This document shows positions 4,115-64,000 of a DNA stretch of 64,000 nt, in pieces (within the stretch, counting starts at the first letter, position 1; each line of letters opens with the position of its first letter). Under the pieces are notes generated by a model. That model was not told where the DNA came from, made no database searches, and worked only from the letters and a program-made list of their open reading frames with translations. A program made the position numbers and the translations under genes. The stretch covers positions 419,247 to 483,246 of the forward strand of contig CP174359.1 in assembly GCA_045401115.1 (NCBI GenBank), given 5' to 3'. Source of the stretch: Candidatus Phycocordibacter aenigmaticus (GTDB lineage Bacteria > Patescibacteriota > Minisyncoccia > Phycocordibacterales > Phycocordibacteraceae).

Positions 4115-4198
4115 GGGCGAGTGGCGGAATTGGTAGACGCGCGTGGCTTAGGACCACGTATCTTCGGATGTGGAGGTTCGAGTCCTCTCTCGCCCACA
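4115..4198 (+). tRNA. tRNA-Leu (anticodon TAG), type II
   Basis: Acceptor GGGCGAG/CTCGCCC, D-arm GGAATTGGTAGAC, anticodon loop CTTAGGA, long variable arm, T-arm GGAGGTTCGAGTCCTCT. Confidence 0.8.
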
Positions 4199-4252
4199 AA
4201 ATTTAAAATCCTCAAAGTGTAAGCTTTGGGGATTTTTAAATTGCATAGAGGC

Positions 4253-4380
4253 GAAGAGGACTCGAAAGACGGAGGCGGTATACAAGACGAACGAAGTGAG
4301 TGCTTGTCGCCGAGGCCGGGCAGGAGGTCCTTATGCGCGTAAGCGAATTAGGAACCTGACGCCGAGCCTCTCTCGCCCAC
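4253..4380 (+). repeat. tRNA-3'-associated structured element, family A (copy A1, at tRNA-Leu-TAG); terminator follows at 4381..4422
   Basis: Begins AGAGGACTCGAA (inverted copy of the tRNA T-arm); conserved core AGACGGAGGCGG..CCGGGCAGGAGGTCCTTATG..CGAATTAGGAACCTGACGCCGAG; ends CCTCTCTCGCCCAC (direct copy of tRNA 3' end); the 25-nt tRNA trailer and terminator are also duplicated. Confidence 0.55.
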
Positions 4381-4578: not shown

Positions 4579-4753
4579 AAGGGATTAAGATACAACATGC
4601 TAGTATCTAGTGTATTGTATCTTGGCCTGCCACTGGAGCAAGCTTTGCTTACCTCGGTAAAGAACTAAATAAAACAGACTGTAATGTTCTATTTTTATTA
4701 TATCCAAGATAAGCAATTCTTATCTTGGCAGCGTCAACACTTGTGTGTCAGCT

Positions 4754-4827
4754 GGAGGCCACGGCGGGAATCGAACCCGCGCATCGAGGTTTTGCAGACC
4801 CCTGTGTTTCCACTTCACCACGTGGCC
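4754..4827 (-). tRNA. tRNA-Cys (anticodon GCA), CCA encoded
   Basis: Revcomp: acceptor GGCCACG, anticodon loop CTGCAAA, T-arm GCGGGTTCGATTCCCGC, 3' CGTGGCC-T-CCA. Confidence 0.8.
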
Positions 4828-9484: not shown

Positions 9485-10369
9485 ATGGAAATCGAAGAAC
9501 TCACTAAATCACAAATTGTTCTCTTGGTACTATTGGTGTCATTTATGACCTCAATAGCAACTGGTATTGTAACGGTTTCACTCCTTGCACAGGCACCGCC
9601 TGCGGTAACACAAACAGTAAACCGTGTGATTGAGCGCACTGTTGAGACCGTTGTGCCGGCTGAAGGGCAAACTGCGTCAGTAGTAAAAAAAGAAACCACC
9701 GTCGTCGTTAAAGAAGACGATCTTATTACTGAATCAATAGATGCAGGTTTTGAAAGAGTGGTACGGATTCACAAAACCCAAGCAACTTCTACACCTATTG
9801 TTGCCCTCGGCGCCATTATTGGTGACGGCACCGTTATCACTGACTTGTCTGTCGTAACTGGCGCACATGCCGTATCTATAGAAGGGGAAACGTATCAGTA
9901 TGAATTAAGTGCATCCATTAAGGAAGCGGGCATTGCTATCTTAAGTGCCACTGGTACTGCGCCAACCACAGAAGCGTTTACTTCAGTTGGAGTGAGTTCT
10001 CTTAAATTGGGACAAACCTTGATCGGGTTATATGGCACCACCATCGATCGTATTGCAATGAGTACGCTCTCAGGGAAGGCAACACTTACTATTGTGAATG
10101 ATGAGTCAAATACACCATCTTCAGATGAGGAGAAAAAAGACACCGGTTCACCAATACGGTCAATAAATGCAACAGTAGATGCAGCTATGACACCTGGCGC
10201 TCCGCTTATCACTGTCTTTGGAGAATTGGTTGGCATTAGTACGGAAGTTTCTCGCGAAGAAGGAAAAGGTACTTTTGTTGCCGTATCTGATATCTCAGCA
10301 TTGTTAAGTAAATCAGCAGAAGCGGCGCGAAAGAAAAATGAAACTGCGTCAACTACTGCGCAACAATAA
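9485..10369 (+). CDS. membrane-anchored hypothetical protein with degenerate trypsin/HtrA-like fold
   Basis: N-terminal TM; Gly/Thr-rich beta segments (GDGTVITDLSVVTGAH, TPGAPLITVFGELVGI) resembling S1C proteases but without clear catalytic triad. Confidence 0.3.
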   Translation: MEIEELTKSQIVLLVLLVSFMTSIATGIVTVSLLAQAPPAVTQTVNRVIERTVETVVPAEGQTASVVKKETTVVVKEDDLITESIDAGFERVVRIHKTQATSTPIVALGAIIGDGTVITDLSVVTGAHAVSIEGETYQYELSASIKEAGIAILSATGTAPTTEAFTSVGVSSLKLGQTLIGLYGTTIDRIAMSTLSGKATLTIVNDESNTPSSDEEKKDTGSPIRSINATVDAAMTPGAPLITVFGELVGISTEVSREEGKGTFVAVSDISALLSKSAEAARKKNETASTTAQQ

Positions 10370-10423
10370 TTATTTTTTGGATAGACTGTACGTGCTCGGT
10401 CTCTTCATATAAGATACAAGTAT

Positions 10424-13126
10424 ATGCCGCCATTTAATAATTTCACCACCAAAGCAAAAGAAGCAGTTCGTAAAGCGCACGAGCTGGCAATTGAGCGTGG
10501 ACAGAACCAGGTGAGTGCTCTTCATATGGCTATTGCGCTCGTCCTGCAAGAAGATTCAGTTATTCTTTCTATTCTAGAGCGTCTTGATGTTGATACGGTA
10601 CTTTTTACCGATTCAATGCTCGACTTACTCGAAGAGCCGGCGACTAACGCAACAATTTCTCCAAGTTATCAACTTTATTTAACACCTGATCTTGCCCAAG
10701 CGCTTGAAGCAAGTGTAAAGATTGCAGATGGTTTAAATGAATCATTTGTTTCAGTTGAACATATTTTTCTTGGTATTCTCCAATACCCTGGTCCGGCCGC
10801 TGAACTTTTTAATCGTTTTCAAATAAACCGCAACACAGTGACTGCTGTTTTACAGGAGTTTCGTTCAAGTGGTGGCGAAGGCCCTGAAGCGCCGAAAAAA
10901 TATCGCGCACTTTCAAAATATACTCAAAACCTCACAAAACTTGCCAGTGAAAATAAACTTGATCCGGTCATTGGTCGTGATCAGGAAATTGGTCGTATCG
11001 TGCAGATACTTTCACGGCGTACTAAGAATAATCCGATTCTTATCGGTGAAGCAGGAGTAGGAAAAACCGCTATCGCTGAAGGATTGGCAGCGCGTATGGC
11101 GGTGGGTGATGTACCAGAGTCATTAAAAGACAAAGAATTACTTTCACTCGACCTCGGCCTTCTTATTGCCGGCACAAAATATCGTGGTGAGTTTGAAGAA
11201 CGCCTTAAGAGTATTATGAAGGAGGTTGAACGTGCTGAAGGGAACGTCATTTTATTTGTAGACGAACTCCACACCCTTGTTGGTGCTGGTGCGGCTGAAG
11301 GCTCTATTGATGCATCGAACATGTTGAAACCTGCGCTTGCGCGTGGTGAATTGCGAGTGATAGGGGCCACAACGCTGAAAGAGTATCAACAACATATTGA
11401 ACGTGATCCGGCGTTGACGAGACGCTTCCAACCAGTGCACGTCAATGAGCCTTCAATTGAAGACGCGATTGCCATTCTACGTGGTTTGCGTGAAAAATAT
11501 GAAGTATTCCATGGCGTGCGAATTACCGATGATGCTATTGTCGCAGCAGTAGAATTATCAAGTCGGTACATTTCTGATCGATTTCTCCCTGATAAATCAG
11601 TGGATTTAATTGACGAAGCTGCTTCAGCACTGCGTATTGCACTTGAAAATAAACCACCGGCGCTTGAAGAAACTGATCGCAAAATTCGTCGTTTGGAAAT
11701 TGAACTTGAGGCACTTCGAAAAGATGAAAAAGAAAAGGTGGGTAAAAAAGTTAAAGACCGCATCAGTCAAATTGAAAGAGAGGTAAGTGAGCTTCGCGAA
11801 AAAACCGCAGATCTTGAGGTGAAGTGGAAAAATGAAAAAGAAGTGCTTACTGACATTGGTGCGTTAAAGAAAGATATTGATCAACTTCGCTCTGACGCCG
11901 AATCTGCAGAGGCACACGCCGATCTTGCACGTGCTGCGGAAATTCGCTACGGCAAACTTCCTGAGTCAGAAAAGAAACTTAAGACAGCGCAAGCAAAGCT
12001 GAAACGGTTCCAGCGTTCACGACGTGTTCTTAAAGAGGAGGTGACTGAGGTTGATATTGCTGAAGTAGTAGCACGATGGACTGGAGTCCCGGTATCACGC
12101 ATGCTTGAAGAAGAAGCCAAAAAGCTTGCACGCATGGAAGACGCTCTTAAAGAGTCAGTTGTGGGACAAGAGGATGCGGTGCGCCTTGTTTCAGATGCAG
12201 TGAAGCGCTCAAGAGTGGGTATTGCAGACCCAAGTCGTCCTATTGGTTCATTCCTGTTCCTTGGACCAACTGGTGTGGGTAAAACAGAACTTTCTAAAGC
12301 ATTAGCGCAATTCATGTTTGATGATGAGAATGCGATTATCCGTGTGGATATGAGTGAGTTCATGGAGAAGCATGCCATTTCTAAAATGATTGGTTCTCCT
12401 CCTGGATATGTTGGTCATGAAGAAGGGGGGTCATTGACTGAGAAAGTACGCCATCGTCCGTACTCAGTGATACTTTTTGATGAAATTGAAAAGGCACATC
12501 CTGAGGTATTTAATATTCTCTTACAGGTGCTTGATAATGGTCATCTCACTGATGCGAAAGGGCGCAAGGTAAACTTCAAAAATTCAATTATCATTCTCAC
12601 CTCAAATATTGGCGCAGAATTTATCGATAAAATGTCTAGCTTCGGCTTCGCTGCGTCTGCTGAGGAAAATGAACAGGCTGAGTACTCAATTGTGAAAGAC
12701 AAAGTAATGGAGCGTTTGAAGGATTATTTCAGACCGGAATTCCTCAACCGTCTTGACGAGATTATTCTGTTTAATATTCTCTCTCAAGAAGCAATCCGCA
12801 ATATTGTTGAGATGCAGGTTGCTATTGTCGAGAAGCGTCTTAAAGAGAAAGATATTACTCTCCTTATTAAACCGGCAGTGTACGATTATTTAGCTAAGGA
12901 AGGTTACAATCCGCAGTACGGTGCTCGGCCACTGAAACGGCTTATCCAATCAAAAATCATGACCCCTGTAGCATCATTCATGGTAAGTCGCGGCGTGCTT
13001 GAGGGTGGCACAGTACAAGTTGATATGAAAGATGGCGAATTCGTTTTTGATGTGGTTAAGAGCGCTCGCGCCAAAAAATTGAAGCGCACCAAAGCACCCA
13101 CATCAGTAGGTTCAAAAACTTCATAA
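10424..13126 (+). CDS. clpB: ATP-dependent chaperone ClpB (AAA+ Hsp100 disaggregase)
   Basis: Clp-N repeats, two AAA modules (GEAGVGKT; GPTGVGKT), long coiled-coil M-domain between NBD1 and NBD2, no ClpP-binding loop. Confidence 0.75.
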
Positions 13127-28319: not shown

Positions 28320-29381
28320 ATGTCAAAAGCAGGGGATGAAGCACATACTCATGGTGGGGCACTGTATCGGAAATACCGACCGCAGAGTTTTGACGATGTG
28401 CTCGGTCAAGACCATGTAGTCACCGCACTCAACGGTGCGCTTAAGGAAAATAACGTAGGACATGCCTATTTGTTTTACGGCTCACGCGGTACGGGAAAAA
28501 CTTCAGTAGCGCGTATTTTTGCACGTGCTCTCGGGGCTACAGACGCTGATATTCATGAAATTGACGCGGCAAGTTACACCGGTGTTGACCATATACGTGA
28601 ATTACGCGACGAGGTACAAGTCATGCCATTTGCGTCAAAAAAGAAAGTGTATATTGTCGACGAGGTGCACATGCTCTCGAAGGCGGCGTTCAACGCCTTT
28701 TTGAAGACGCTTGAGGAGCCACCTGAGTATGTGGTCTTTATTTTGGCAACAACCGAACTTGAAAAAGTTCCCGACACCATCCAATCACGGTGCCAGGTGT
28801 TTACCTTTAAGAAACCCACCACAAAAGTGGTGAGCGAGATGGTAACACGTGTAGCGAAGGCGGAAGGCTTTACCCTTGAAGCACCTGCAGCAGAACTTAT
28901 TGCCTTGCTCGCGGGCGGCTCATTCCGCGATGCGCAAAGTGTGTTGCAAAAGGTGCTTATTTCCTCAGAAGATAAAAAGGTCACCACTGACGAGGTTGAA
29001 GCCGTAACTGGCGCGCCCAAAAGTGAACTAGTACGCCGTGTACTTGAAGCATTGGCTCATGGTGACACAAAAGATGCACTTGCAGCAGTCGGTGAGGGAG
29101 TATCGGCGAATGCGGATATGAATTTATTCCTTACTCTTCTTTTGGAGCGCACCCGTCTTGCACTACTCCTTCGCTACTCCAGTGAGTTAGGTGAGACGCT
29201 AATTGTTGACTTACCGGAGGCAGAACAGCAAGGACTGCGCGCGCTCGCTGAGGACAAAGAATCAAAACTAAATTCAGAGACACTTAAGAAGCTTATTGAG
29301 GCGTCTATTGCGACTGGGCGCGCGGCGGTGCCGCATTTGCCACTTGAGGTCGCGATACTAGAATTAGTAGGTGGAAAGTAG
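28320..29381 (+). CDS. dnaX: DNA polymerase III subunit gamma/tau (short form)
   Basis: AAA+ clamp-loader motifs HAYLFYGSRGTGKTS, DEVHMLS, SRCQVF sensor; 353 aa. Confidence 0.75.
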   Translation: MSKAGDEAHTHGGALYRKYRPQSFDDVLGQDHVVTALNGALKENNVGHAYLFYGSRGTGKTSVARIFARALGATDADIHEIDAASYTGVDHIRELRDEVQVMPFASKKKVYIVDEVHMLSKAAFNAFLKTLEEPPEYVVFILATTELEKVPDTIQSRCQVFTFKKPTTKVVSEMVTRVAKAEGFTLEAPAAELIALLAGGSFRDAQSVLQKVLISSEDKKVTTDEVEAVTGAPKSELVRRVLEALAHGDTKDALAAVGEGVSANADMNLFLTLLLERTRLALLLRYSSELGETLIVDLPEAEQQGLRALAEDKESKLNSETLKKLIEASIATGRAAVPHLPLEVAILELVGGK

Positions 29382-29558
29382 TAGATGGAAGGTGGGAGCT
29401 TCGCTTGAAATTAAAGAAGAATTTGGACAGACACTAAAATAGTGTATATTCTAGAACAGGTCTAATGGCGAGGTTGCTTGCAGTGTTAGCCTATTCAATG
29501 AGGTCCAAGAATTTCTTGGATACCCAGTAGGTATATTGTATAGTTCTAAAGTATTCAA

Positions 29559-29629
29559 TCCGGGATCGTCTAATGGCAGGACGCTTGGTTTTGGTCCAAG
29601 AAATTGGGGTTCGAGTCCCTGTCCCGGAA
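29559..29629 (+). tRNA. tRNA-Gln (anticodon TTG)
   Basis: Acceptor TCCGGGA/TCCCGGA, D-arm GTCTAATGGCAGGAC, anticodon stem CTTGG/CCAAG loop TTTTGGT, T-loop TTCGAGT. Confidence 0.7.
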
Positions 29630-29681
29630 CTAGGTTACGTTACACACCCGATACGAGAGTATCGGGTGTTTACGTACACCT

Positions 29682-29844
29682 TTCCGGGACAGGGACTCGA
29701 AAGACGGAAGCGCAGGGCTCCCGTTGTGCTGAGTTATATGCACAATGGGAACGCTGAGTCCGGGCAGGAGGTCGTTATGAGTTTTCATGCCGGCAGGCAG
29801 GCAAAACGAATTACGAACCTGACGCCGAGTCCCTGTCCCGGAAC
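29682..29844 (+). repeat. tRNA-3'-associated structured element, family A (copy A2, at tRNA-Gln); hairpin terminator 29845..29880
   Basis: Begins TTCCGGGACAGGGACTCGAA = exact reverse complement of tRNA-Gln 3' end; core AGACGGAAGCG..hairpin..GAGTCCGGGCAGGAGGTCGTTATG..CGAATTACGAACCTGACGCCGAG; ends GAGTCCCTGTCCCGGAAC (direct copy from mid T-loop). Confidence 0.55.
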
Positions 29845-29912
29845 TAGAAAGAAAAGCCGCTTTCAGCGGCTTTTCTTAGTTCCGGAGACAAGAACGGTGC
29901 CTGCGCACCGTT

Positions 29913-30051
29913 CGGGGGACTCGAACCGCCGGAGGCATGTCGCGCGCAGCGGAGCGAGCACGAAGCCGAGGCGTGGCCCGCGGTCGTTATGAATATTTTC
30001 TGAAAGAAAATATGAATTACGAACCATCAGGCTCTAGCCCTGTCCCGGAAC
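29913..30051 (+). repeat. tRNA-3'-associated structured element, family A (copy A3, tandem to A2, more diverged); two terminators 30054..30082 and 30088..30120
   Basis: Begins GGGGGACTCGAACC, contains GCCGGAGGC.., GGTCGTTATG, ..GAATTACGAACC.., ends CCCTGTCCCGGAAC direct copy. Confidence 0.5.
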
Positions 30052-30243
30052 AAAATAAACGGCTCACCCAGGTGAGCCGTTCTTTGCTAAACGGCTCAGT
30101 GCACTGAGCTGTTTATTTTTTAAATAAAAATCAAAAATGTGATGCTTTAAAGAAAGAGATTTTTGAGGTGGCTGGGTTACCTCTAAAAACAGTGCCAGTT
30201 GGGTCGAATTTTGCGTTAGCGATCAATGAAATTGTGGGGTAAC

Positions 30244-30271
30244 TTGAACCTTGAGGGGAAGAGCGTATAAT
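30244..30271 (+). promoter_or_regulatory. sigma70-like promoter of islet gene 30280 (-35 TTGAAC, 16-nt spacer, -10 TATAAT), near-leaderless
   Basis: TTGAAC at 30244-30249, TATAAT at 30266-30271, ATG at 30280. Confidence 0.4.
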
Positions 30272-30279
30272 TTAACTCA

Positions 30280-30765
30280 ATGGACACACTTCTAAAACAA
30301 CTTACCTCATACAATCTATTCAACTACCTCTTACCGGGGGTGCTCTTTGCGGTTTTCATGGAATTTTTTACTCCATATTCATTTGCAGACCTTCATCCAA
30401 TAATTACGGCACTTATCTACTATTTTACAGGCATGGTCATAAGTCGTATCGGCTCACTTATTGTGGAGCCGTTTTTAAAATGGATTAAGTTTGTTAAATT
30501 TGCAGACCATAAAGATTTTGTAATTGCATCTCTAAAAAACTCAAAAATTGAAGTACTTTCAGAGGCTAACAACACTTACCGCACTCTCACCGCACTTTTT
30601 TTGGTGATGTTGCTAATAAAATTATACGAGTCACTGGCAAGCGTGTTTTCTGTGTTGTCTAACGGTACCGTACTCCCGCTTCTTTTATTGTTCGGAGTTT
30701 TTCTTTTTTCGTACAGAAAACAAACTGAATATATTACAAGTACAATAGAGGCAACTAAAGTATGA
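30280..30765 (+). CDS. hypothetical integral membrane protein (about 4 TM), first gene of AT-rich islet
   Basis: 161 aa, four hydrophobic segments; low GC relative to flanks; stop overlaps next start (ATGA). Confidence 0.5.
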   Translation: MDTLLKQLTSYNLFNYLLPGVLFAVFMEFFTPYSFADLHPIITALIYYFTGMVISRIGSLIVEPFLKWIKFVKFADHKDFVIASLKNSKIEVLSEANNTYRTLTALFLVMLLIKLYESLASVFSVLSNGTVLPLLLLFGVFLFSYRKQTEYITSTIEATKV

Positions 30766-31853
30766 GCGATTTTTACGAAGTAGACCTCTTTAAGGTTGGA
30801 AACGGAAAAAGCGGTGATGCGATTTGTTTAAGGTATCAGCGAGAAGCGGACGAGCATATAACAATCCATGTAGTGGATGGGGGTTATGTTGAAAATGCAG
30901 ATGAATTTGTTGCACACATTAACTCACATTATGGAGACCCTCAGCGTATCGAACATGTGGTACTTACACATCCGGACGGTGATCATGCCGGGGGGCTCAG
31001 AAAAATTCTCGAAGAATTTGAAGTTGGCACACTATGGGTGAACCGACCTTGGAACCATGTCGCGGATTTGTTACCACGTTTCGATTATCCATATACACCA
31101 GATGGTCTCGTGCAAAGATTAAAAAAAGATTTTTCTCATACCGCTACTTTAGAAAAAATAGCTCAAGAGAAAGGGATTGAGATTAGAGATGCATTTCAAG
31201 GACAAGAAATCGGAGCGTTTAAAGTTCTTTCTCCCACGCGTTCCTTCTATTTAGATCTTGTTATTGAATCAGAAAAGACACCAGAGGCTGAACGTGAAGC
31301 GTCAATCGTAGGAAAGGTTTATGAGGCAGTGCATGAAGTAATCGGCAAAGTGGCTTCTTTGTGGGGAGTAGAGAACCTAAAAGGTGACTCAGTCGGCACA
31401 AGTGCTGAGAATGAAATGAGTATTGTACAACTCGCAAATTTAAGTAATGAAAAAATTCTCTTAACTGGCGATGCAGGAGTACGTGCTCTAGGTTTAGCGT
31501 ATGACTATGTTCGTGGAATTGGAATTCCGCTACCTGGTATTGATAAATTTCAAGTACCCCATCATGGCTCAAGAAGAAACCTTTCAACAGAAATATTAGA
31601 CCAATGGCTTGGGGAAAGATTACCGGATATGCCCACACCTGAACAACAAACCATAGCAGCTATGATTTCTGCTCATGAAGATGATCCGGCTCATCCTAAA
31701 AATGCTGTGGTACGCGCAATGTGGCATAGGGGTGCCGGTGTAGGTTCAACCGAGAATCAAGAATTTCTTTACTGGAAACCAGACGGACAACCTAATCGTC
31801 CTGGTTGCGGGCCGGTTGCAGGCCTACCGTATCCTAACGATATGGAAGAATAA
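30762..31853 (+). CDS. standalone ComEC/Rec2-type metallo-beta-lactamase-fold hydrolase (COG2333-like)
   Basis: MBL motifs VLTHPDGDHAGG (HxHxDH variant as in ComEC C-domain), later VPHHGSRRN (ComEC PHHGS motif). Confidence 0.55.
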   Translation: MSDFYEVDLFKVGNGKSGDAICLRYQREADEHITIHVVDGGYVENADEFVAHINSHYGDPQRIEHVVLTHPDGDHAGGLRKILEEFEVGTLWVNRPWNHVADLLPRFDYPYTPDGLVQRLKKDFSHTATLEKIAQEKGIEIRDAFQGQEIGAFKVLSPTRSFYLDLVIESEKTPEAEREASIVGKVYEAVHEVIGKVASLWGVENLKGDSVGTSAENEMSIVQLANLSNEKILLTGDAGVRALGLAYDYVRGIGIPLPGIDKFQVPHHGSRRNLSTEILDQWLGERLPDMPTPEQQTIAAMISAHEDDPAHPKNAVVRAMWHRGAGVGSTENQEFLYWKPDGQPNRPGCGPVAGLPYPNDMEE

Positions 31854-31857
31854 GTTT

Positions 31858-32856
31858 ATGGGTGTAGTTCACTTTTTAAACGTTAAGGATGGAGATTGTC
31901 ATGTTATTCAACATCCGTTAGGTCACGTTTCTGTTATTGATGTATGCAATGCATATTTAGATTATGAAACTACAGAGACAGAAGGAGTGGATTTTTCTGC
32001 AAAATCTTTGGGTGTCTCTGGCAATTTTAATCAAAAGGCAAATCCAGAGAATCCAATTGATTACTTAGAGAATCAAGGTATTTCTTCAGTATTTCGCTTC
32101 ATTCTCACGCATCCAGACATGGACCACATGGATGGAATTGAAGATTTCTTTGATGAATTTCCCCCTACTAACTTCTGGGATACTGAAAACTCAAAAGAAA
32201 TTATAGATTTTAAAAAGAAGTATAAAGAATCTGACTGGGACTTCTATAAGTCTTTAAGAGATAACAATGGTGATAACATTACAAAACGTCTGACATTGTA
32301 TGCTGGGGCAAGAAATAAATTTTTTAATAGAAACGAAGATGGAAATGGTGGGGGTGATGGGTTACATGTACTTTCACCAACTCCTGAATTAATAAATCAA
32401 GCAAACGACAAAGAAGATTGGAATGATTCATCTTATGTCATCCTTTACCGAACCGGTGCTCGAAAGATTCTATTCACAGGCGATTCACACGATAGCACTT
32501 GGGAGCATATATTAGAAAATTATGAAAACGATGTAAAAGATATAGATGTTTTAATGGCACCACATCACGGACGTGATTCAAACCGTAATTATGATTTTCT
32601 TGATGTGGTAAATCCGAAATTAACCCTGTTTGGTAATGCAAAATCAAAGCATTTAGCTTATGATAAATGGAGTAATAGAGGGTTAAAATATATTACTAAT
32701 AATCAGGCTGGGACAATAATTCTTAACCCAGATGGAAGCGATTTCGAAGTTTATGTTACGTGCAAAGCTTTTGCAGAAGCGTATGCCACTCAAGAAAGAA
32801 GAAATACATTTTTTTATGATAAACACTCAGCTTGGTATTTAATGGATATTATCTAA
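31858..32856 (+). CDS. standalone ComEC/Rec2-type MBL-fold hydrolase, paralog of preceding gene (very AT-rich)
   Basis: ILTHPDMDHMDGI and MAPHHGRDSNRN motifs; ORF-track start 31816 overlaps upstream gene, ATG at 31858 with RBS more plausible. Confidence 0.55.
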   Translation: MGVVHFLNVKDGDCHVIQHPLGHVSVIDVCNAYLDYETTETEGVDFSAKSLGVSGNFNQKANPENPIDYLENQGISSVFRFILTHPDMDHMDGIEDFFDEFPPTNFWDTENSKEIIDFKKKYKESDWDFYKSLRDNNGDNITKRLTLYAGARNKFFNRNEDGNGGGDGLHVLSPTPELINQANDKEDWNDSSYVILYRTGARKILFTGDSHDSTWEHILENYENDVKDIDVLMAPHHGRDSNRNYDFLDVVNPKLTLFGNAKSKHLAYDKWSNRGLKYITNNQAGTIILNPDGSDFEVYVTCKAFAEAYATQERRNTFFYDKHSAWYLMDII

Positions 32857-32926
32857 TTTCAGATACCAGTGGGATGGATTTGAGAGGTATAATAAGCCCT
32901 AACATCGTCCCAGACAGTTAAACAAG

Positions 32927-32952
32927 AAAAAAGCCGCTTTCAGCGGCTTTTT
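32927..32952. terminator. bidirectional terminator AAAAAAGCCGCTTTCAGCGGCTTTTT (same hairpin core as at 29851..29875)
   Basis: Perfect GCCGC-TTTCA-GCGGC hairpin with A/T tails between convergent genes. Confidence 0.65.
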
Positions 32953-32973
32953 AAATTAAGCATTTTTTCTTAC

Positions 32974-34254
32974 TTACCTCTTTGGCACAAACGTCAATGC
33001 TTTTCCTTGTTTATCGCCACGGCCGGTGCGGCCAATGCGGTGTACGTAATCCTCGAACGTACCAGGTAGGTCATAGTTAATCACGTGTGACACTTGCTCT
33101 ACGTGGATACCACGCGCCGCAACGTCAGTCGCAACCAAGACACGTGCTTCACCGCTCTTAAAGCGTGAGAGCGCGTTCTGTCGTTGCCCGTGAGTTTTAT
33201 TTCCATGAATTGCTGTTGCGGAAATACCCGAGTCTGAGAGTTGCTGAGCAATTTTCTGTACACTATGTTTCATTGCGCCGAATATGAGTACACGCTTGAG
33301 TTCAGGATCCTTGAGAAGGTTAGTGAGTGTCCCAAATTTATCAGCTTGGAGGTAGTGTACGACGTCTTGTTCAATGCTCTGTGTAATGTCGTTTTTCTTA
33401 ACCGACACCGTAACAGGATCTTTGAGGAAATCGTCTGTTAATTTCTTGGTTTTTACGTCAAAGGTCGCTGAGAAGAAGAGTGTCTCTCTTTCTTTTGGAA
33501 TCTCTGAGATGATTTTCTTAATATCGGTAATGAATCCCATATCAAGCATACGGTCAGCTTCGTCCAGTACAACGGTTGTAATGTACTGTGGCTTGAGTGC
33601 TCCTCTTTTAATGAGGTCAAGGATACGCCCCGGTGTTCCGATAACAAAATCGTTAGGACGACTCACCGCACGAAGCTGTGGGCGAATATCAACACCGCCG
33701 ACACACATTGCTGAGAAGATACGGAAACATGAAGAGAGTTTCTGTAGTTCGTCTCGAATTTGAACAGCAAGTTCACGTGTAGGCGCAATAATGAGTGTTT
33801 GCCGATTTTGGTCTTTGAGCGCTTTTTCAATAAGCGGTATCAAGAACGCAGCTGTTTTACCGGTGCCGGTTTCTGCTAAACCAATAACGTCCTGGCCTTT
33901 AAGAATAGTAGGGATGATTTGGTCTTGAATAGGCGTTGGTTTGGTCATACCAAGTTTCACAATATGATCCGCAAACTTTTTGTTGATTCCAATATTTTCA
34001 AAAGAGTGCTCTGGCACATACTCCTCTTGTACTACTTTTTTAGGGTTGGTGTTAATAAAGTTGGCTGGGTTGAATGTAGGCATTTTACGGCCGCCACGAG
34101 CACCGCCGCGTGCGCCACCACGAAAGCCGCCACGAGCGGGTCCACGGGAAGGTCCACGAGAACCACCACCTGATCGTGATGATGAATGAAACGGTTTACG
34201 TTTTTGAGATGAATAAGGCGCACCTCGACGCTGTCGATTATTATTTGTATTCAT
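32974..34254 (-). CDS. DEAD-box ATP-dependent RNA helicase with N-terminal RGG-rich tail
   Basis: Q-motif, AETGTGKT, DEAD (VLDEADRMLDMGF), SAT, HRIGRTGR; N-terminus GGSRGPSRGPARGGFRGGARGG. Confidence 0.85.
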   Translation of the reverse strand: MNTNNNRQRRGAPYSSQKRKPFHSSSRSGGGSRGPSRGPARGGFRGGARGGARGGRKMPTFNPANFINTNPKKVVQEEYVPEHSFENIGINKKFADHIVKLGMTKPTPIQDQIIPTILKGQDVIGLAETGTGKTAAFLIPLIEKALKDQNRQTLIIAPTRELAVQIRDELQKLSSCFRIFSAMCVGGVDIRPQLRAVSRPNDFVIGTPGRILDLIKRGALKPQYITTVVLDEADRMLDMGFITDIKKIISEIPKERETLFFSATFDVKTKKLTDDFLKDPVTVSVKKNDITQSIEQDVVHYLQADKFGTLTNLLKDPELKRVLIFGAMKHSVQKIAQQLSDSGISATAIHGNKTHGQRQNALSRFKSGEARVLVATDVAARGIHVEQVSHVINYDLPGTFEDYVHRIGRTGRGDKQGKALTFVPKR

Positions 34255-34455
34255 TTTTTTATAGTTAACAAACCTCAGTTACGAGGTGTGCAGGTTGAAA
34301 AATCAAACGTAGTCAGATAGAAAGTTTGAGGCTAGTGAGCCCCACACGAGTATCAAAAGCGTGTGTGTATAATAGTATATTTACGATTTTTGTCAATCTA
34401 CTATTTTTGATCCTCGGAAGAGGGTGTACACAATGCATATTTTAAAAAGTGACAT

Positions 34456-34485
34456 ATAAACGGCTCATTCCATTGAGCCGTTTAT
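34456..34485. terminator. terminator hairpin of AAACGGCTCA..TGAGCCGTTT family
   Basis: ATAAACGGCTCATTCCATTGAGCCGTTTAT. Confidence 0.6.
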
Positions 34486-34880: not shown

Positions 34881-34940
34881 TTTACACTGTTTACACCCAC
34901 AAGGTACTATAGAAACATAGCAATAACACTATGTTCTATG
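34881..34940 (+). promoter_or_regulatory. putative lexA promoter (-35 TTTACA, -10 TACTAT) with Cheo-like palindrome TAGAAACATAG-N10-CTATGTTCTA overlapping lexA start
   Basis: Palindrome 34910..34938 has GAAC/GTTC half-sites like the Gram-positive SOS box; it sits between the -10 element and the ATG. Confidence 0.4.
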
Positions 34941-35585
34941 CACGACACACAAGCAAAACTTCTCACCCTTATTCGTCAAAATAAAAATCTCGGCAGGCAG
35001 AGCCTCCGTCAAATTGCCAGCTTTATTGATGCCGAAGGAAAACCACAGGTAGTAAAGTATCACTTACGTAAACTTGAAGAGGCAGGGTTGATTCAGCTGA
35101 ACTTAGCAAAAGGTATTATTAAACCAGTCCAGAAAGGAGTAACTGGAAAAGTGCGCAGTTTGTTCTTTTCACTACCTATTGTGGGTGCGGCGAATTGTGG
35201 CCCCGCGACGGTCTTTGCCGATGAGCGTATTGAGGGGTATCTCAAAGTCTCAACAAACATGCTTCCACACCGAAAGAATGATCTGTATGTACTAGTGGCG
35301 GACGGTCCTTCTATGAATAAGGCTGAGGTTCACGACGGAGTAACTATTGAAAATGGTGATTTTGTCGTAGTAGATAGCAAAGCTAAAAACCCTAAGAACG
35401 GTGATATCGTAGTTGCCGTTATAGATGGTATGGCTACTATCAAGCGCTATACAATTGACCGGGTGAATAACTGTATTGTATTGAATGCTGAGTCAACAGA
35501 GAAGTATCACCCAGTGTATTTACATAGTGGTGACGATTTTACTATCTCCGGCAAGGTGATTGATGTCATTAAAAAAAGCACATAA
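34938..35585 (+). CDS. lexA: LexA repressor (S24 peptidase)
   Basis: N-terminal winged HTH, Ala-Gly cleavage site (VGAANCGP), catalytic Ser (GPSM) and Lys (ATIKRY). Confidence 0.8.
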   Translation: MHDTQAKLLTLIRQNKNLGRQSLRQIASFIDAEGKPQVVKYHLRKLEEAGLIQLNLAKGIIKPVQKGVTGKVRSLFFSLPIVGAANCGPATVFADERIEGYLKVSTNMLPHRKNDLYVLVADGPSMNKAEVHDGVTIENGDFVVVDSKAKNPKNGDIVVAVIDGMATIKRYTIDRVNNCIVLNAESTEKYHPVYLHSGDDFTISGKVIDVIKKST

Positions 35586-59000: not shown

Positions 59001-59936
59001 ATGGTGACATCCACTCAAAGTATAGTAAGATTTTTTTTACCTATCTTAGGGGTGGTGGTTTTGTTTATTGTAGTTGGTTGGTTTTCTATTACAGAACAAG
59101 ATCGGAGCCAAGATACACCCTCCACTTCTTTTCCGGCACTCGATGGACTCTCTTTTCTTGTAGAATCTGATGAGGGCGATTGGTATAGCGTACAACAAAA
59201 AACTTCAGATGGATTCGTGACACAAACACCGGAATTTACTGGAACAATAATTGACTATGCGCGTCAAGGAGAAGTCGAAGCACTTATCCAATCTAAGGAT
59301 GGTTTTCATCAAGTACTTTATAGGGAAAAAGAAGGCGATTGGCGCGTCGTGTCTGAGAGTCCTTTCGAAAAAGCAACACTGAAACTCTCTGAAGATGGCA
59401 CATTACTAGGTTTTTCTGAACGCACAGAAACAGAGATGGATTCAGCTGACTTTGAAGCATGGCAAATTGTTGTTTACTCTCTTGAAACTTCTGAAAGTAC
59501 ATTAATTTCAGGATACGCGCCGCAGTTTGTAACGGTCACTGAGGGATGGACACTAATATATTTCAGTTCTTCTTTAGGTTTGGCAATGTATGAACCAATA
59601 TCAGGAGACATTATCTATTCAGAAGACATTACACCGGTATCCACTCGGCTACCGGTAAAAATTTCTTCTGATGGCACAACGTTGATTTCATACAATGAGA
59701 CTACTCAAGATTTTGTAATCTTTGATTTACAAAATCCAACCACTATTGGTCTTAATGCGCTTGGTACTCTTCCGCCGTATAATGATATATATAAAAAAGA
59801 CGGACTACTATTCGGTCTTGATATACGTGAAAAGGAAAGTTTTATGTGGGTGCATGCGTTGGATCGTTTAGACGAAGGAGAGCAAATATATACTTTTCCT
59901 GAAAACATTATTCCGCTTAAATTTTCATCATCATAA
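59001..59936 (+). CDS. membrane-anchored hypothetical protein (paralog of 58024)
   Basis: Same architecture and conserved blocks as preceding gene. Confidence 0.45.
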   Translation: MVTSTQSIVRFFLPILGVVVLFIVVGWFSITEQDRSQDTPSTSFPALDGLSFLVESDEGDWYSVQQKTSDGFVTQTPEFTGTIIDYARQGEVEALIQSKDGFHQVLYREKEGDWRVVSESPFEKATLKLSEDGTLLGFSERTETEMDSADFEAWQIVVYSLETSESTLISGYAPQFVTVTEGWTLIYFSSSLGLAMYEPISGDIIYSEDITPVSTRLPVKISSDGTTLISYNETTQDFVIFDLQNPTTIGLNALGTLPPYNDIYKKDGLLFGLDIREKESFMWVHALDRLDEGEQIYTFPENIIPLKFSSS

Positions 59937-59944
59937 ATTAATTT

Positions 59945-62900
59945 ATGCACGCTATTTTTAAAGCAACACGTCACCGTATTTTTCTCGCCACCATTGTGGG
60001 TATGTTGGTTCTTTTTCCTATAGGTGTTGACGCGTTCCTTGACTTTAATGGAGGTGGTTTTTTTAATCCTGATCCAGGCGATCAAGGATTCCCTAATCCA
60101 GGCGGAGGCGGACCTCTTAGTATTAGTTGTGGAGCTACTCCTCGAACAATTTCTTCAGGAGGATCAGTTAATTGGTTCTCTTCTGTGTCAGGAGGAACTG
60201 GTTCTTATACGTATTCATGGAGTGGGACTAATGGGTTGTCTGGTAACGCGTCAAATGTGTTTAAAACATATAGTACTGTAGGTACTAAAACAGCACAGGT
60301 TACTGTATATAGTGGCGGACAAACGGCAAGCGATACATGTGGGACGGTACAAGTAAGCGCTCCAACACCAAGTCCGACAGTATCATTATCAGCGAACCCA
60401 ACATCAATTGCAGCAGGAAATACCTCAACACTTTCATGGTCGTCATCTAACGCCACGAGTTGTACCGGTTCAGGATTCAGCACCGGAGGCGCTACGAGTG
60501 GTTCACGTTCGGTGTCGCCAAGTTCGAACACCACATACGGTATTGTTTGTAGTGGCGCAGGAGGAACAGTATATAAAGCAGCATCGGTTTCAGTAACTCA
60601 AGCGGTAGCAACCAATCTTTCCATCTACCCAACATCAATTGTACGCGGAAATTCTGCAACCATCTCATGGTCGTCATCTAACGCCACGAGTTGTACCGGT
60701 TCAGGATTCAGCACCGGAGGCGCTACGAGTGGTTCACGTTCGGTGTCGCCAAGTTCTTCAACAACATATAGTGTGACCTGTCAAAATTCAGTTTCATCAT
60801 CTTCGAAGAGTAGGACATTGACCGTCACCACTCCAACTCCAGCCCCAACCGCCTCACTCTCAGCATCACCGTCATCACTTACGCAAGGCCAGTACACAAC
60901 ACTTTCATGGTCGTCATCTAATGCCAGTAGTTGTGCTGGTTCCGGGTTTAGCACCTCAAACCGTACCAGCGGTTCAGTGACCATATCACCAAACAGCACC
61001 ACAAATTATTCGGTGACGTGTTACGGCACAGGCGGAACCGCATCTGATAGTTCACGAGTGACCGTTACCACGCCACTTCCATCATCATGTAGCAGTGGTT
61101 CTCGTCAAACAGTGAGTATGGCGTTATATAACACAAATAATGAGGCATCAGGTATCTGGGGCAGTGCAAGTATTAATAGTTCATATGCTCCGGGTGAGAC
61201 GATACGCGCAACTGGCTCATTATGGTCAGACGATTATCCACGTGCGTGTCCTTCACTATCTATTAACGGCACCTCATTTAATCTTGGTTGTCAGTTGCAA
61301 CTAGCACCAAGCAAAGTGCTCACAGTTGGTACAGCACCATCAACTCCAGGAACGTATCAAATGTGGTGGGCAGTGGGCAGCACAGGAAGCTATCGACTTG
61401 ATCGTATTTGTCCTATGACATATACCGTTGTTGCACCCGCCCCAACCACCTCACTCTCCGCATCACCTTCTTCTATTACACGTGGTGACAACAGTACACT
61501 TTCATGGTCATCGACTAATGCCACAAGCTGTTCTGGGAATGGTTTTAACACTTCAAACCGTACCAGCGGCTCGGTATCCGTATCACCAAACAGCACCACA
61601 AATTATTCGGTGACGTGTACTGGTGGTGGGGGAAGTCGTTCAGATTCTAGCACTGTTACTGTCACCACTCCAACTCCAGCCCCAACCGCCTCACTCTCAG
61701 CATCACCGTCATCACTTACGCAAGGCCAGTACACAACACTTTCATGGTCGTCATCTAATGCCAGTAGTTGTGCTGGTTCCGGGTTTAGCACCTCAAACCG
61801 TACCAGCGGTTCAGTGACCATATCACCAAACAGCACCACAAATTATTCGGTGACGTGTTACGGCACAGGCGGAACCGCATCTGATAGTTCACGAGTGACC
61901 GTTACCACGCCACTTCCATCATCATGTAGCAGTGGTTCTCGTCAAACAGTGAGTATGGCGTTATATAACACAAATAATGAGGCATCAGGTATCTGGGGCA
62001 GTGCAAGTATTAATAGTTCATATGCTCCGGGTGAGACGATACGCGCAACTGGCTCATTATGGTCAGACGATTATCCACGTGCGTGTCCTTCACTATCTAT
62101 TAACGGCACCTCATTTAATCTTGGTTGTCAGTTGCAACTAGCACCAAGCAAAGTGCTCACAGTTGGTACAGCACCATCAACTCCAGGAACGTATCAAATG
62201 TGGTGGGCAGTGGGCAGCACAGGAAGCTATCGACTTGATCGTATTTGTCCTATGACATATACCGTTGTTGCACCCGCCCCAACCACCTCACTCTCCGCAT
62301 CACCTTCTTCTATTACACGTGGTGACAACAGTACACTTTCATGGTCATCGACTAATGCCACAAGCTGTTCTGGGAATGGTTTTAACACTTCAAACCGTAC
62401 CAGCGGCTCGGTATCCGTATCACCAAACAGCACCACAAATTATTCGGTGACGTGTACTGGTGGTGGGGGTTCAGATTCTGATACGGCTCGTGTCACTGTT
62501 AATGATCCGCCTCCAGAACCAACGGCAAATATTTCTGTGAACCCGTCTACAATTATCCGTGGAAACAGCAGTACGCTTTCATGGTCATCGACTGCCGCAA
62601 GTTTTTGTACTGGCTCAGGATTCAGCACTTCAAACCGTACGAGTGGCTCGGTATCCGTATCACCAAACAGCACCACAAATTATTCGGTGACGTGTAGTGG
62701 AACTGGTGGCAGTGATTCTGACACTGCGCGCGTGACTGTAAACGACCCCGCCCCAACCACCTCACTCTCCGCATCACCTTCTTCTATTACACGTGGTGAC
62801 AACAGTACACTTTCATGGTCATCGACTAATGCCACAAGCTGTTCTGGGAATGGTTTTAACACTTCAAACCGTACCAGCGGCTCGGTATCCGTATCACCAA

Positions 62901-64000
62901 ACAGCACCACAAATTATTCGGTGACGTGTACTGGTGGTGGGGGTTCAGATTCTGATACGGCTCGTGTCACTGTTAATGATCCGCCTCCAGAACCAACGGC
63001 AAATATTTCTGTGAACCCGTCTACAATTATCCGTGGAAACAGCAGTACTATTTCATGGAGTTCCGAAGATGCTACCGGATGTACTGGTTCAGGTTTTTCA
63101 ACAAGTGGTGCCACGAGCGGTTCACGTACCATTTCACCGCCTTCAAGTCGAAATTATAGTGTTACATGTTCTGGACCTGGTGGTAGTGATTCAGACACTG
63201 CGGGAATAACGGTGAACGATCCAGCTCCAACCGCCTCACTCTCAGTGTCACCGTCGTCTATTACGCGCGGTGAAACTGTCACGTTAAGTTGGTCTTCAAA
63301 TAATGCTACTCGTTGTTCTGGCGATGGCCAAGATGGTTTTTTCACTGGAGGTAATGCTTCAGGTAATATCACCATTATTCCGACTGGAAGTAAGACATAT
63401 ACTGTAAGTTGTACTGGTCCTGGCGGTAGCGCTTCTGATGGTGTATATGTGTCAGTAAGTAATCCCGCTCCAACCGCCTCACTCTCAGCATCACCATCTT
63501 CACTTACTCAAGGTGGTAATACTCGATTGAGTTGGAATTCAACCAATGCAACCCGTTGTTCTGGTGATGGGCAAGACGGTTTTTACACTAATGCGCGTAC
63601 GTCAGGTAGTGTGACTATCACTCCAAGTAGTAGTAAAACATACACTGTTACCTGTGAAGGATATGGCGGTGAAGATACTGACTCAGCTTCTGTAAGCATT
63701 TCAACACAATGCTCAGATGGCATCGACAACGATGGCGATGGGCTTATCGACCATCCAAATGACCCAGGCTGTTTTGCGGCATCAGACAATGACGAATATA
63801 ATCCACCACCAGAAGCGTCAATTTCGCTCTCAGTGTCACCTAATCCTGCACGTACCAATGAAACCGCACGACTCTCATGGACCGCACGTAATGTGGAAAA
63901 CGGATCCTGTCGTCTGACCGGTAGTAACGGAGATTCATGGAATTTGAGTGGCACACAAGGCTCTCGTACTTCATCAACACTTACCGAGGAGGTTACGTAT
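59945..64000 (+). CDS. giant secreted tandem-repeat surface protein (3' partial, runs off window; >1350 aa)
   Basis: ATG 59945 with signal peptide MHAIFKATRHRIFLATIVGMLVLFPIGVDA; no stop in this frame to window end (all ORF-track hits here are antisense or off-frame); >15 Ig-like ~80-aa repeats, two copies of the ~110-aa module shared with 56110, and a second CSDGIDNDGDGLIDHPNDPGC motif. Confidence 0.55.
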   Translation, partial: MHAIFKATRHRIFLATIVGMLVLFPIGVDAFLDFNGGGFFNPDPGDQGFPNPGGGGPLSISCGATPRTISSGGSVNWFSSVSGGTGSYTYSWSGTNGLSGNASNVFKTYSTVGTKTAQVTVYSGGQTASDTCGTVQVSAPTPSPTVSLSANPTSIAAGNTSTLSWSSSNATSCTGSGFSTGGATSGSRSVSPSSNTTYGIVCSGAGGTVYKAASVSVTQAVATNLSIYPTSIVRGNSATISWSSSNATSCTGSGFSTGGATSGSRSVSPSSSTTYSVTCQNSVSSSSKSRTLTVTTPTPAPTASLSASPSSLTQGQYTTLSWSSSNASSCAGSGFSTSNRTSGSVTISPNSTTNYSVTCYGTGGTASDSSRVTVTTPLPSSCSSGSRQTVSMALYNTNNEASGIWGSASINSSYAPGETIRATGSLWSDDYPRACPSLSINGTSFNLGCQLQLAPSKVLTVGTAPSTPGTYQMWWAVGSTGSYRLDRICPMTYTVVAPAPTTSLSASPSSITRGDNSTLSWSSTNATSCSGNGFNTSNRTSGSVSVSPNSTTNYSVTCTGGGGSRSDSSTVTVTTPTPAPTASLSASPSSLTQGQYTTLSWSSSNASSCAGSGFSTSNRTSGSVTISPNSTTNYSVTCYGTGGTASDSSRVTVTTPLPSSCSSGSRQTVSMALYNTNNEASGIWGSASINSSYAPGETIRATGSLWSDDYPRACPSLSINGTSFNLGCQLQLAPSKVLTVGTAPSTPGTYQMWWAVGSTGSYRLDRICPMTYTVVAPAPTTSLSASPSSITRGDNSTLSWSSTNATSCSGNGFNTSNRTSGSVSVSPNSTTNYSVTCTGGGGSDSDTARVTVNDPPPEPTANISVNPSTIIRGNSSTLSWSSTAASFCTGSGFSTSNRTSGSVSVSPNSTTNYSVTCSGTGGSDSDTARVTVNDPAPTTSLSASPSSITRGDNSTLSWSSTNATSCSGNGFNTSNRTSGSVSVSPNSTTNYSVTCTGGGGSDSDTARVTVNDPPPEPTANISVNPSTIIRGNSSTISWSSEDATGCTGSGFSTSGATSGSRTISPPSSRNYSVTCSGPGGSDSDTAGITVNDPAPTASLSVSPSSITRGETVTLSWSSNNATRCSGDGQDGFFTGGNASGNITIIPTGSKTYTVSCTGPGGSASDGVYVSVSNPAPTASLSASPSSLTQGGNTRLSWNSTNATRCSGDGQDGFYTNARTSGSVTITPSSSKTYTVTCEGYGGEDTDSASVSISTQCSDGIDNDGDGLIDHPNDPGCFAASDNDEYNPPPEASISLSVSPNPARTNETARLSWTARNVENGSCRLTGSNGDSWNLSGTQGSRTSSTLTEEVTY

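Follow-up and report, generated by a model that had tools for sequence, protein, structure and literature searches.

The 6A-MBL system was reportedly defined by van den Berg et al. in 2024 as the combination of a Cap2/Cap3-like E1-E2-JAB protein with an enzyme of the metallo-β-lactamase (MBL) fold. It is cited as a validated anti-phage system and also appears in a list of jumbo-phage defences. Other defence MBLs, namely HamM and the Avs-associated enzymes, have been found by experiment to be Zn-dependent DNases that two inserted linkers keep inactive until a partner protease cuts (PMC12799240, PMC12642450, 10.1101/2025.09.03.673762), and the MBL domain of ComEC is also cited as a metal-dependent nuclease (in PMC12799240). 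The PDC entries of the PADLOC database are “phage defence candidates”, predicted from their recurrent embedding in known defence loci (guilt-by-embedding), and PDC-M48, with its components A and B, is already catalogued among them. Here we describe a cassette of three genes, A, B1 and B2, in a stretch of 64,000 nucleotides from Candidatus Phycocordibacter aenigmaticus (GenBank GCA_045401115.1, contig CP174359.1, positions 419,247 to 483,246 of the forward strand), which is referred to below as the window. With moderate confidence we favour the view that these genes form a horizontally acquired defence cassette of the PDC-M48 type directed against mobile elements (phages or plasmids), in which the inner-membrane protein A would act with two ComEC-like metallo-nucleases, MBL1 and MBL2, expressed from one operon.

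What is new is the three-gene architecture, with two putative nucleases and a single membrane subunit, in a minimal Patescibacteria genome. Also new are the observations that the A family provides a recurrent third gene of 6A-MBL loci, and that small membrane proteins of at least three families are interchangeable partners of ComEC-like defence MBLs.

The three proteins and their assignment to PDC-M48

Protein A matched the PADLOC model PDC-M48A (PDLC04670) over residues 1-159 of 161 and profile positions 1-160 of 164 (E = 3.1e-56, 188 bits), and MBL1 matched the PDC-M48B model PDLC04676 from end to end (residues 1-363 against positions 1-357 of 357, E = 1.5e-129). Both of the components that PADLOC requires, a PDC-M48A match and a contiguous PDC-M48B match, were therefore present, and by these profile matches the cassette belongs to PDC-M48, in a three-gene form. 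MBL2 matched a different PDC-M48B model (PDLC04673, E = 1.8e-35). The first-pass annotation of this DNA had found the three genes reminiscent of defence systems while not recognising any named one. The likeness appears to hold, judging from the PDC-M48 match and from the A-family genes of 6A-MBL loci (see below), whereas the second statement does not, since a catalogue name exists.

Hydropathy gave four hydrophobic segments in protein A (residues 13-30, 41-62, 102-120 and 127-144), in agreement with the four-transmembrane protein originally proposed, with a lysine-rich loop (64-101) between the segment pairs and a basic C-terminal tail. Hydropathy and the positive-inside rule together are consistent with an N-in/C-in four-helix topology. 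Protein A also matched phrog_11864, and no Pfam or NCBIfam family was found for it. In an alignment of 29 homologues from diverse sources the mean column identity was 55%, with the conserved motifs YNLFNYLLPG, YYFxGxxxSRxGSLxxEP, SExNNxYRT and YRKQTxYI and with the invariant polar residues R56, E63 and K114 located in, or adjoining, hydrophobic segments. Because of this high conservation and these invariant polar residues, it is likely that A is more than a passive anchor. The A protein of the window departs from the family at 4 of the 48 strongly conserved consensus residues (F45L, Y77H, D87N and R155T).

For both MBLs, Pfam returned the generic Lactamase_B domain only, and the more specific assignment comes from motifs, profiles and structure. 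The ComEC-type motifs that had been noticed in the sequence, THPDGDHAGG and PHHGS in MBL1 and THPDMDHMDG and PHHGR in MBL2, lie on invariant or near-invariant columns of the family alignments (120 members each). A check on the metal ligands showed that every family-invariant H/D motif was kept in both proteins, the conserved putative ligand residues being H70, D72, D74, H75, D237, H267 and H268 in MBL1 and H85, D87, D89, H90, D209, H236 and H237 in MBL2. The best sequence matches in the PDB were ComEC MBL domains (9ic4, 30bt and 9vc6). The AlphaFold2 models, of high predicted local confidence (pLDDT 90.8 for MBL1 and 92.2 for MBL2), had the ComEC MBL crystal structure 9ic4 as their best Foldseek match (E = 1.7e-14 and 1.3e-15 respectively, target TM-score 0.76), so that the ComEC-type identity first read from the motifs is upheld. 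Both proteins also matched the PADLOC models LmuA, RTasMBL and Avs1a more weakly over most of their length (down to 1.8e-19). Since neither MBL has a signal peptide, both are predicted to be cytoplasmic.

The second-ranked structural match of both models was the pneumococcal phosphorylcholine esterase Pce/CbpE, and the lower ranks included cyclic-nucleotide and other phosphodiesterases. The MBLs could therefore be phosphodiesterases rather than nucleases, acting on a membrane-associated or small-molecule substrate, such as phosphorylcholine-type esters, lipid head groups or cyclic nucleotides, that the membrane protein would supply or transport, and both the conserved polar and charged residues inside the hydrophobic segments of A and a match of MBL1 to the phrog_7043 “tail protein” family, which would fit an envelope-degrading activity, are compatible with this. 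We consider it improbable, since ComEC nuclease domains rank first in both the sequence and the structure comparisons, the nearest defence relatives cleave DNA and not choline esters, beta-lactams or RNA (10.1101/2025.09.03.673762; PMC12642450), and the proteins are predicted to remain in the cytoplasm. The phrog_7043 match covers positions 621-871 of the 1077-position profile (1.1e-43), which means that ComEC/Pce-like MBL domains occur within large proteins of phage tails as well. In BFVD, a viral protein of 940 residues, B6CXF5, ranked second among the structural matches of the MBL1 model.

Several other identities were examined and rejected on the basis of family cut-offs. The MBLs are not ordinary metabolic hydrolases, the outcome named at the outset as a refutation: MBL1 scored 12.7 bits against the glyoxalase II model and 12.1 bits against that of RNase Z, for which the NCBIfam cut-offs are 200.8 (TIGR03413) and 293 bits (TIGR02651), and MBL2 matched neither. 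The public (NCBI) annotation of MBL2 is “ComEC/Rec2 family competence protein”; against TIGR00361, with a cut-off of 190 bits, MBL1 and MBL2 scored 30 and 45 bits and aligned only to positions of about 482-635 of 663, and a ComEC/Rec2 competence protein was rejected. Membership of the Avs1a type was also rejected (39 and 32 bits against the NF041809 cut-off of 420).

The two MBLs had been described as paralogous, and profile-profile comparison supports a relationship (97% probability). It is a distant one only, at about 25% identity and between different subfamilies, and BLASTP aligned just 42 residues (E = 2e-5). A recent duplication was rejected on these grounds and since each protein has closer homologues elsewhere. 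MBL1 furthermore carries an insertion of about 40 residues at about 170-212 (pLDDT 44-57) without counterpart in MBL2.

Partners and genomic contexts of the homologues

Homologues of each of the three proteins were found in thousands, at 50-69% identity and in unrelated phyla, the named hosts including Thiodiazotropha, Nitrospinae, Chloroflexi, Legionellaceae, Isosphaera, Salinibacter, Parvibaculum, Bacteroidia and several Patescibacteria. Relatives of A were confirmed in 310 stretches among 185,579 species-representative genomes (about 0.17%), again over many phyla. When 80 species-representative A loci were scanned with hidden Markov models (HMMs) built from the homologues, A was nearly always found to adjoin an MBL gene, in the order A-B or B-A, and the MBL could be of any of several subfamilies. 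The same adjacency was seen on viral contigs. The closest MBL1 homologue examined in its context (P0003, 63% identity, P0002 at 69% being left out) belongs to an A-B1 pair with no second MBL. The A-B1-B2 arrangement of the window was unique among about 135 loci examined, while two MBLs per locus recur in L006, L010/L011, L019, L025, L054 and L212.

MBLs of this kind also occur with other membrane proteins. The closest homologues of MBL2 (64-66% identity) are each preceded by their own membrane protein of about 205 residues, C1, a partner that MBL2 lacks in the window. A further partner, C2, has 226 residues, and by HMM neither C1 nor C2 is PDC-M48A. Both share the layout of A, that is, two hydrophobic segments, a soluble loop and one or two more hydrophobic segments, and each pairs with B1-type or B2-type MBLs. 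From these pairings with A, C1 and C2 it follows that the general unit is a small polytopic membrane protein plus a ComEC-like MBL. A comparison of the A and C2 profiles yielded only E = 0.003 at 10% probability, and that of A and C1 yielded nothing; a common origin is not claimed. Csx27 is a membrane protein associated with type VI-B CRISPR-Cas13b. The C2 proteins upstream of the MBLs in L001 and L006 gave weak matches to the PADLOC Csx27 models (E = 4e-5 to 4e-6).

In 12 of the 80 A loci a Cap2/Cap3-like E1-E2-JAB (Cap2_3) protein was present. These proteins, like the MBLs encoded upstream, pass the NCBIfam equivalog cut-offs for 6A-MBL, the gene order being MBL-Cap2_3-A, and in at least nine of the loci examined the A-family gene directly follows Cap2_3. 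It lies directly downstream of the E1-E2-JAB gene in L037, L043, L046, L056, L067, L069, L080 and L087, for example (at about 10001-10500 in most). NCBIfam holds no model for this third gene, and the A-family protein may be an unrecognised component of 6A-MBL. The commonest Pfam families among the immediately neighbouring genes in the 80 loci were Prok-E2_A, ThiF and Prok-JAB, next LexA/Peptidase_S24, and then DNA methylases, Fic, recombinases, patatin and AbiEii.

Homologous pairs were found immediately 3' of type I restriction-modification genes or close to them; at the outermost margin of integrative or conjugative elements, where large serine recombinase, TrwB and relaxase genes adjoin; alongside F-type tra genes in Legionella; and on conjugative Clostridium perfringens plasmids of 12-14 kb, adjoining a recombinase. 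They were also present on 35 (B1-type) and 4 (B2-type) viral contigs of IMG/VR, and in P2-like coliphages the pair is located directly 3' of the phage replication gene A, a position documented as a P2 defence hotspot (PMC9122126). The neighbourhood analysis suggested at the outset thus led to prophages, plasmids, integrative elements and restriction-modification genes. These surroundings would also suit a selfish module of mobile elements, functioning in entry exclusion or in the manner of an addiction or toxin-antitoxin system, which destroys competing DNA or kills cells that lose the element and of which the copy in the window would be a stranded remnant. The CI/LexA-type repressors adjacent to such pairs and the tRNA 3'-end repeats beside the islet, suggestive of past integration events, can be added in its favour. 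This explanation largely overlaps with defence, because prophage hotspots encode systems that protect the host (PMC9122126). We regard it as unlikely: pairs are also found among chromosomal restriction-modification genes where element genes are lacking, the window retains neither a recombinase nor an element gene, and all three genes are intact and conserved.

The cassette in the window and its probable acquisition

The positions of the cassette and the features around it are listed in Table 1. The three genes are co-directional and were confirmed as a compact operon by tRNA-Gln, A and B1 overlapping by ATGA and the B1 stop codon being separated from the ATG of B2 by 4 nt, so that the genes are translationally coupled. 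For MBL2 we take the ATG at 31858 and not the TTG at 31816 of the mechanical open reading frame list (31816-32856), since the public annotation begins there and M1 is invariant in the family alignment. The proposal that the operon has its own strong promoter stands in so far as a promoter-like site is well placed; such sites are not commoner near the operon than in shuffled sequence. Because the -10 box ends 8 nt 5' of the ATG of gene A, the mRNA would be leaderless or nearly so. The two hairpins between the second tRNA-linked element and this promoter shield the operon against upstream transcription, and the right-hand copy of the 23-nt hairpin is likely to be a bidirectional terminator common to the operon and the convergent DEAD-box helicase gene.

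Table 1. Features of the window in and around the A-B1-B2 cassette
Feature	Position	Strand	Remarks
tRNA-Gln(ttg)	29559-29630	+	ARAGORN; Rfam tRNA 56.7 bits; end of the conserved dnaX-tRNA-Gln block
tRNA-linked element 1	29631-29851	+	context, outside the operon
Terminator-like hairpin AAAAGCCGCTTTCAGCGGCTTTT, a 23-nt palindrome, left copy	29852-29874
tRNA-linked element 2	29875-30055	+	related to element 1; terminates in CCCTGTCCCGGAAC; within the hairpin-bracketed segment
Two terminator-like hairpins, type AAACGGCTCA...TGAGCCGTTT	30056-30115		30056-30081 and 30088-30115
Promoter-like site TTGAAC-16 nt-TATAAT	30244-30271	+	10/12 consensus matches
Gene A	30280-30765	+	161-residue membrane protein, PDC-M48A family
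Gene B1 (MBL1)	30762-31853	+	363-residue soluble ComEC-type MBL hydrolase, PDC-M48B family (PDLC04676)
Gene B2 (MBL2)	31858-32856	+	332-residue soluble ComEC-type MBL hydrolase, other subfamily (PDC-M48B PDLC04673)
Right copy of the 23-nt hairpin AAAAGCCGCTTTCAGCGGCTTTT	32929-32951		A and T runs flanking
DEAD-box helicase gene	32974-34254	-	convergent to the operon
LexA-like repressor gene	34938-35585	+	helix-turn-helix + Peptidase_S24; context only; 2.1 kb from the end of MBL2

With a GC content of 0.385, the coding islet (30280-32856) is the lowest 2.6-kb stretch of the window (0.436 ± 0.018). The low GC reported initially is thus real for the islet as a whole and for B2 (0.345, the lowest 1-kb stretch) and does not extend to B1, which is average (0.431; A 0.362), and the composition is therefore mosaic. 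The bracketing of the islet by identical hairpins was corrected in a similar way. The 23-nt AAAAGCCGCTTTCAGCGGCTTTT pair is identical, is the only one of its kind in the 64 kb (0 copies expected by chance) and is the sole repeat that brackets the segment; since the left copy precedes the second tRNA-linked element, the bracketed 3.1-kb segment consists of element 2, two further hairpins and the operon. A third hairpin of the AAACGGCTCA...TGAGCCGTTT type, with the same stem as the two upstream of the promoter, was found at about 34455-34485. This recurrence indicates that the genome re-uses hairpin families, and it weakens the significance of the identical hairpins that flank the islet.

The mosaic GC content, the loss of the usual partner gene of MBL2 and the lack of remaining mobility genes could also be expected of an inactive relic, a decaying fusion of two modules without current function. 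We consider this very improbable, since the three reading frames are full-length and tightly coupled, both MBLs retain every family-invariant residue, A differs at only the four consensus residues given above, and the operon has a terminator and a consensus-like promoter.

To follow the site in related genomes we used 80 metagenomic relatives with DnaX 50-82% identical and with upstream synteny kept. The dnaX-tRNA-Gln junction was present in all 12 of the relatives scanned for tRNAs. None of the 80 had A, B1 or B2 within 10 kb (864 kb, HMM scan), and the genes downstream in the window were kept in place in 0 of 80, which makes tRNA-Gln a synteny break point. Judged from these relatives and from the patchy occurrence over many phyla, the cassette does not belong to the core genes of the clade, and its genes are not the ubiquitous syntenic genes that would have spoken against an island. 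Its position in the lowest-GC segment, its absence from syntenic relatives and its 50-69% identical homologues scattered over unrelated phyla support the earlier proposal of horizontal acquisition, which we regard as probable. With downstream synteny broken in 80 of 80 relatives, no empty site could be aligned to fix the borders of the islet. No integrase or recombinase was found between tRNA-Gln and the LexA-like gene, and no direct repeat of the tRNA 3' end occurs at the distal boundary, the copies at 29826-29847 and 30033-30054 both being proximal to the operon. Since there is no integrase and all of the tRNA 3'-end copies are on the tRNA side, a classical tRNA-integrated island is not demonstrated.

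The elements next to tRNA-Gln belong to a small family of 170-220 nt with a GC content of 54% (against 43.7%), of which the window contains three: the two in Table 1 and one at about 4198-4375. They are located directly 3' of tRNA genes, twice after tRNA-Gln and once after tRNA-Leu(tag), and share the core blocks CTCGAAAGACGGARGCG, CCGGGCAGGAGGTCSTTATG and GAATTASGAACCTGACGCCGAG. The 3' end of the tRNA next to each element recurs within that element twice, once inverted and once as a direct copy at its end, and a terminator-like hairpin comes after each. In element 1 the inverted copy is at 29682-29701 and the terminal direct copy, a perfect one of 22 nt, at 29826-29847; in element 2 the copy at 30033-30054 is partial. 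In the Gln element the tRNA 3'-end copies form a perfect stem of 18-20 nt. A search of Rfam with the whole window and with 29400-30300 returned only tRNAs and sub-threshold hairpin matches to miRNA models. In relatives L097, L098 and L103 tRNA-Gln is not followed by such an element. The family may represent small elements with tRNA 3' ends as their target, or scars left by integration.

On the other side of the cassette lies the LexA-like gene. In about 12 other loci LexA-like genes (LexA_DNA_bind + Peptidase_S24) were found 13-370 nt from modules of an MBL with a membrane protein, and often divergently transcribed; the LexA-adjoining loci include L013, L021, L022, L023, L033, L039, L050, L083, L010/L011 and L007-L009. 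In at least one (L050, 533 residues, Pfam) LexA is fused to an N6_N4 DNA methyltransferase, and the LexA-like proteins of L022, L039 and L031 (435-621 residues) are long enough for similar fusions. The adjacency suggests DNA-damage control or a restriction-modification-like logic. In 79 of the 80 relatives lexA was not within 10 kb of dnaX, so that the cassette may belong to the lexA-side block and not to the tRNA-side block.

The LexA link also speaks for a cellular role in DNA processing tied to the SOS response or to DNA uptake, in which nucleases anchored or regulated by A would break down DNA that has been imported or damaged, for repair or the salvage of nucleotides. Such an activity would plausibly be valuable in a Patescibacteria genome of 0.72 Mb, the MBLs have the fold of the ComEC nuclease domain, MBL2 bears a competence-protein name at NCBI, a LexA-like gene is 13-370 nt from the B-A module in at least nine Patescibacteria and other loci, and that of the window is 2.1 kb away whereas the lexA of relatives is not near dnaX. 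Several findings make this role quite unlikely. The MBLs lack the ComEC channel, OB domains and signal peptides; the family is rare and patchy, is absent at the syntenic site in all of the sampled relatives and is present on phages and plasmids. In the LexA-linked modules, both the subtype and the gene order (B1-like then A) differ from those of the window, and no operator-like motif was common to the operon promoter and the region upstream of lexA, which have only a terminator-type hairpin in common.

Two further features of the window were observed. The motif CTAACATCGTCCCAGACAG at 32898-32916, between the MBL2 stop codon and the terminal hairpin, is similar to stretches located some 20 nt 5' of TATAGT boxes in two relatives, L097 (about 11258-11300) and L098 (about 4743-4785), and may be what is left of a promoter or operator of the ancestral locus, now orphaned. 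The region of about 59400-63800 has the most atypical tetranucleotide composition of the window, with no complete open reading frame of 150 residues or more beyond 59936, and a gene that is very long or repetitive may extend past the end of the window.

Proposed mechanism and comparison with known systems

The defence function and DNase activity that we infer for the cassette would operate as follows. MBL1 and MBL2 would act as metal-dependent DNases, like ComEC and the defence MBLs of the HamM/Avs1a type, and A would tether them to the cytoplasmic face of the membrane via its conserved lysine-rich loop and C-terminal tail. A would also take the place of the protease as the controlling subunit, by keeping the MBLs silent or by sensing a trigger. 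The trigger would be DNA entry or membrane perturbation, upon which A would release or activate the nuclease, and during infection the nucleases would then degrade the incoming DNA or else all DNA (abortive infection). The three-gene form may have arisen when two formerly separate modules, A+B1 and C+B2, merged with loss of the partner of B2. One membrane subunit would then serve two nucleases, perhaps providing a wider substrate range or an escape from phage inhibitors.

A number of points weigh against a defence function of this kind. PADLOC candidates are not always active: some fail in tests (PDC-M63 and PDC-S04), and in another study 4 of 8 worked. The literature searched contained neither a mention of PDC-M48 nor an experiment on it. 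In the window no defence gene, integrase or transposase adjoins the cassette, which is flanked by dnaX/tRNA-Gln and the DEAD-box helicase gene. The membrane families A, C1 and C2, and a further protein of 231 residues, are without clear homology to one another, and since the wider MBL clade does not share one conserved membrane partner, a specific interaction between A and the MBLs is a conjecture; no fusion of A with an MBL was found among the 120 best matches listed for each family. To these can be added the second place of Pce among the structural matches. The LexA-adjoining B-A modules in Patescibacteria could mean a role in DNA damage or DNA uptake, and MBL2, without its usual partner, could be non-functional cargo.

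A broader proposal, which we put forward only tentatively and consider doubtful as a whole, is that small four-helix membrane proteins of at least three families (A, C1 and C2) are general docking or gating subunits of ComEC-like defence nucleases. They would then provide a widespread, protease-independent entry-point immunity that cuts foreign DNA at the inner membrane face. According to this proposal 6A-MBL would be an elaboration of the same principle, and a single A would control two nucleases in the present cassette. As a separate point, the elements matched to tRNA 3' ends could be a new small tRNA-targeting mobile element that delivered the cassette.

If the defence reading is true, PDC-M48 is a real and very compact defence system with an effector in the clade of the recently solved protease-gated MBLs, and a membrane protein in place of a protease would represent a different way of keeping a DNase silent. 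The homologous pair of an Escherichia coli P2-like prophage, at 29118-30706 of Peduovirus P24E6b, makes the question of PDC-M48 testable in a model host. That an episymbiont with a genome of 0.72 Mb keeps a 2.6-kb cassette with two putative nucleases would also bear on the selective pressure that mobile DNA exerts on minimal genomes.

Among described systems, the HAD-like hydrolase + TM (transmembrane) system of P4 satellites (Rousset et al. 2022, PMC9122126) resembles the cassette in combining an enzyme with a small membrane protein and in its location at P2/P4 hotspots. The enzymes differ in fold (HAD versus MBL), the likeness is one of architecture only, and the main text of that study mentions no MBL system. 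The C-terminal nuclease domain of ComEC/Rec2 is the best match in sequence and structure and has the HxDxDH ... D ... HH and PHHGS-type motifs in common with the window proteins. Unlike ComEC, these are standalone and soluble, without an OB domain or competence channel, and their distribution is patchy and linked to mobile elements.

Hachiman (HamM), AVAST (Avs1a), Lamassu, DRT and canu use MBLs of the same ComEC-like clade as effectors in two-part modules. In the window the partner is a small membrane protein, where those systems have a trypsin-, caspase- or subtilisin-like protease; no protease domain was found in the operon or its flanks, the S24 peptidase of the LexA-like protein, 2.1 kb off, being of a different class. 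With 6A-MBL the cassette shares a ComEC-like MBL effector and, in the loci described above, an A-family membrane protein directly after Cap2_3. Membership was rejected since the enzyme cut-off was missed, MBL1 reaching 19.6 and MBL2 48 of the 220 bits that NF058524 requires (true members 351-358 bits). The window also has no E1-E2-JAB (NF058523) open reading frame between 28.5 and 34.5 kb, where the neighbours are dnaX, the DEAD-box helicase gene and the LexA-like gene, and any regulation would therefore proceed without ubiquitin-like conjugation. The closest relative is PDC-M48 itself, a computational candidate only, with which the cassette shares the adjacent, co-directional A and MBL1 genes and full-length model matches, and of which the same pair is found in P2-like prophages and C. 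perfringens plasmids. To this pair the window adds a second MBL, of another PDC-M48B model, giving the A-B1-B2 operon.

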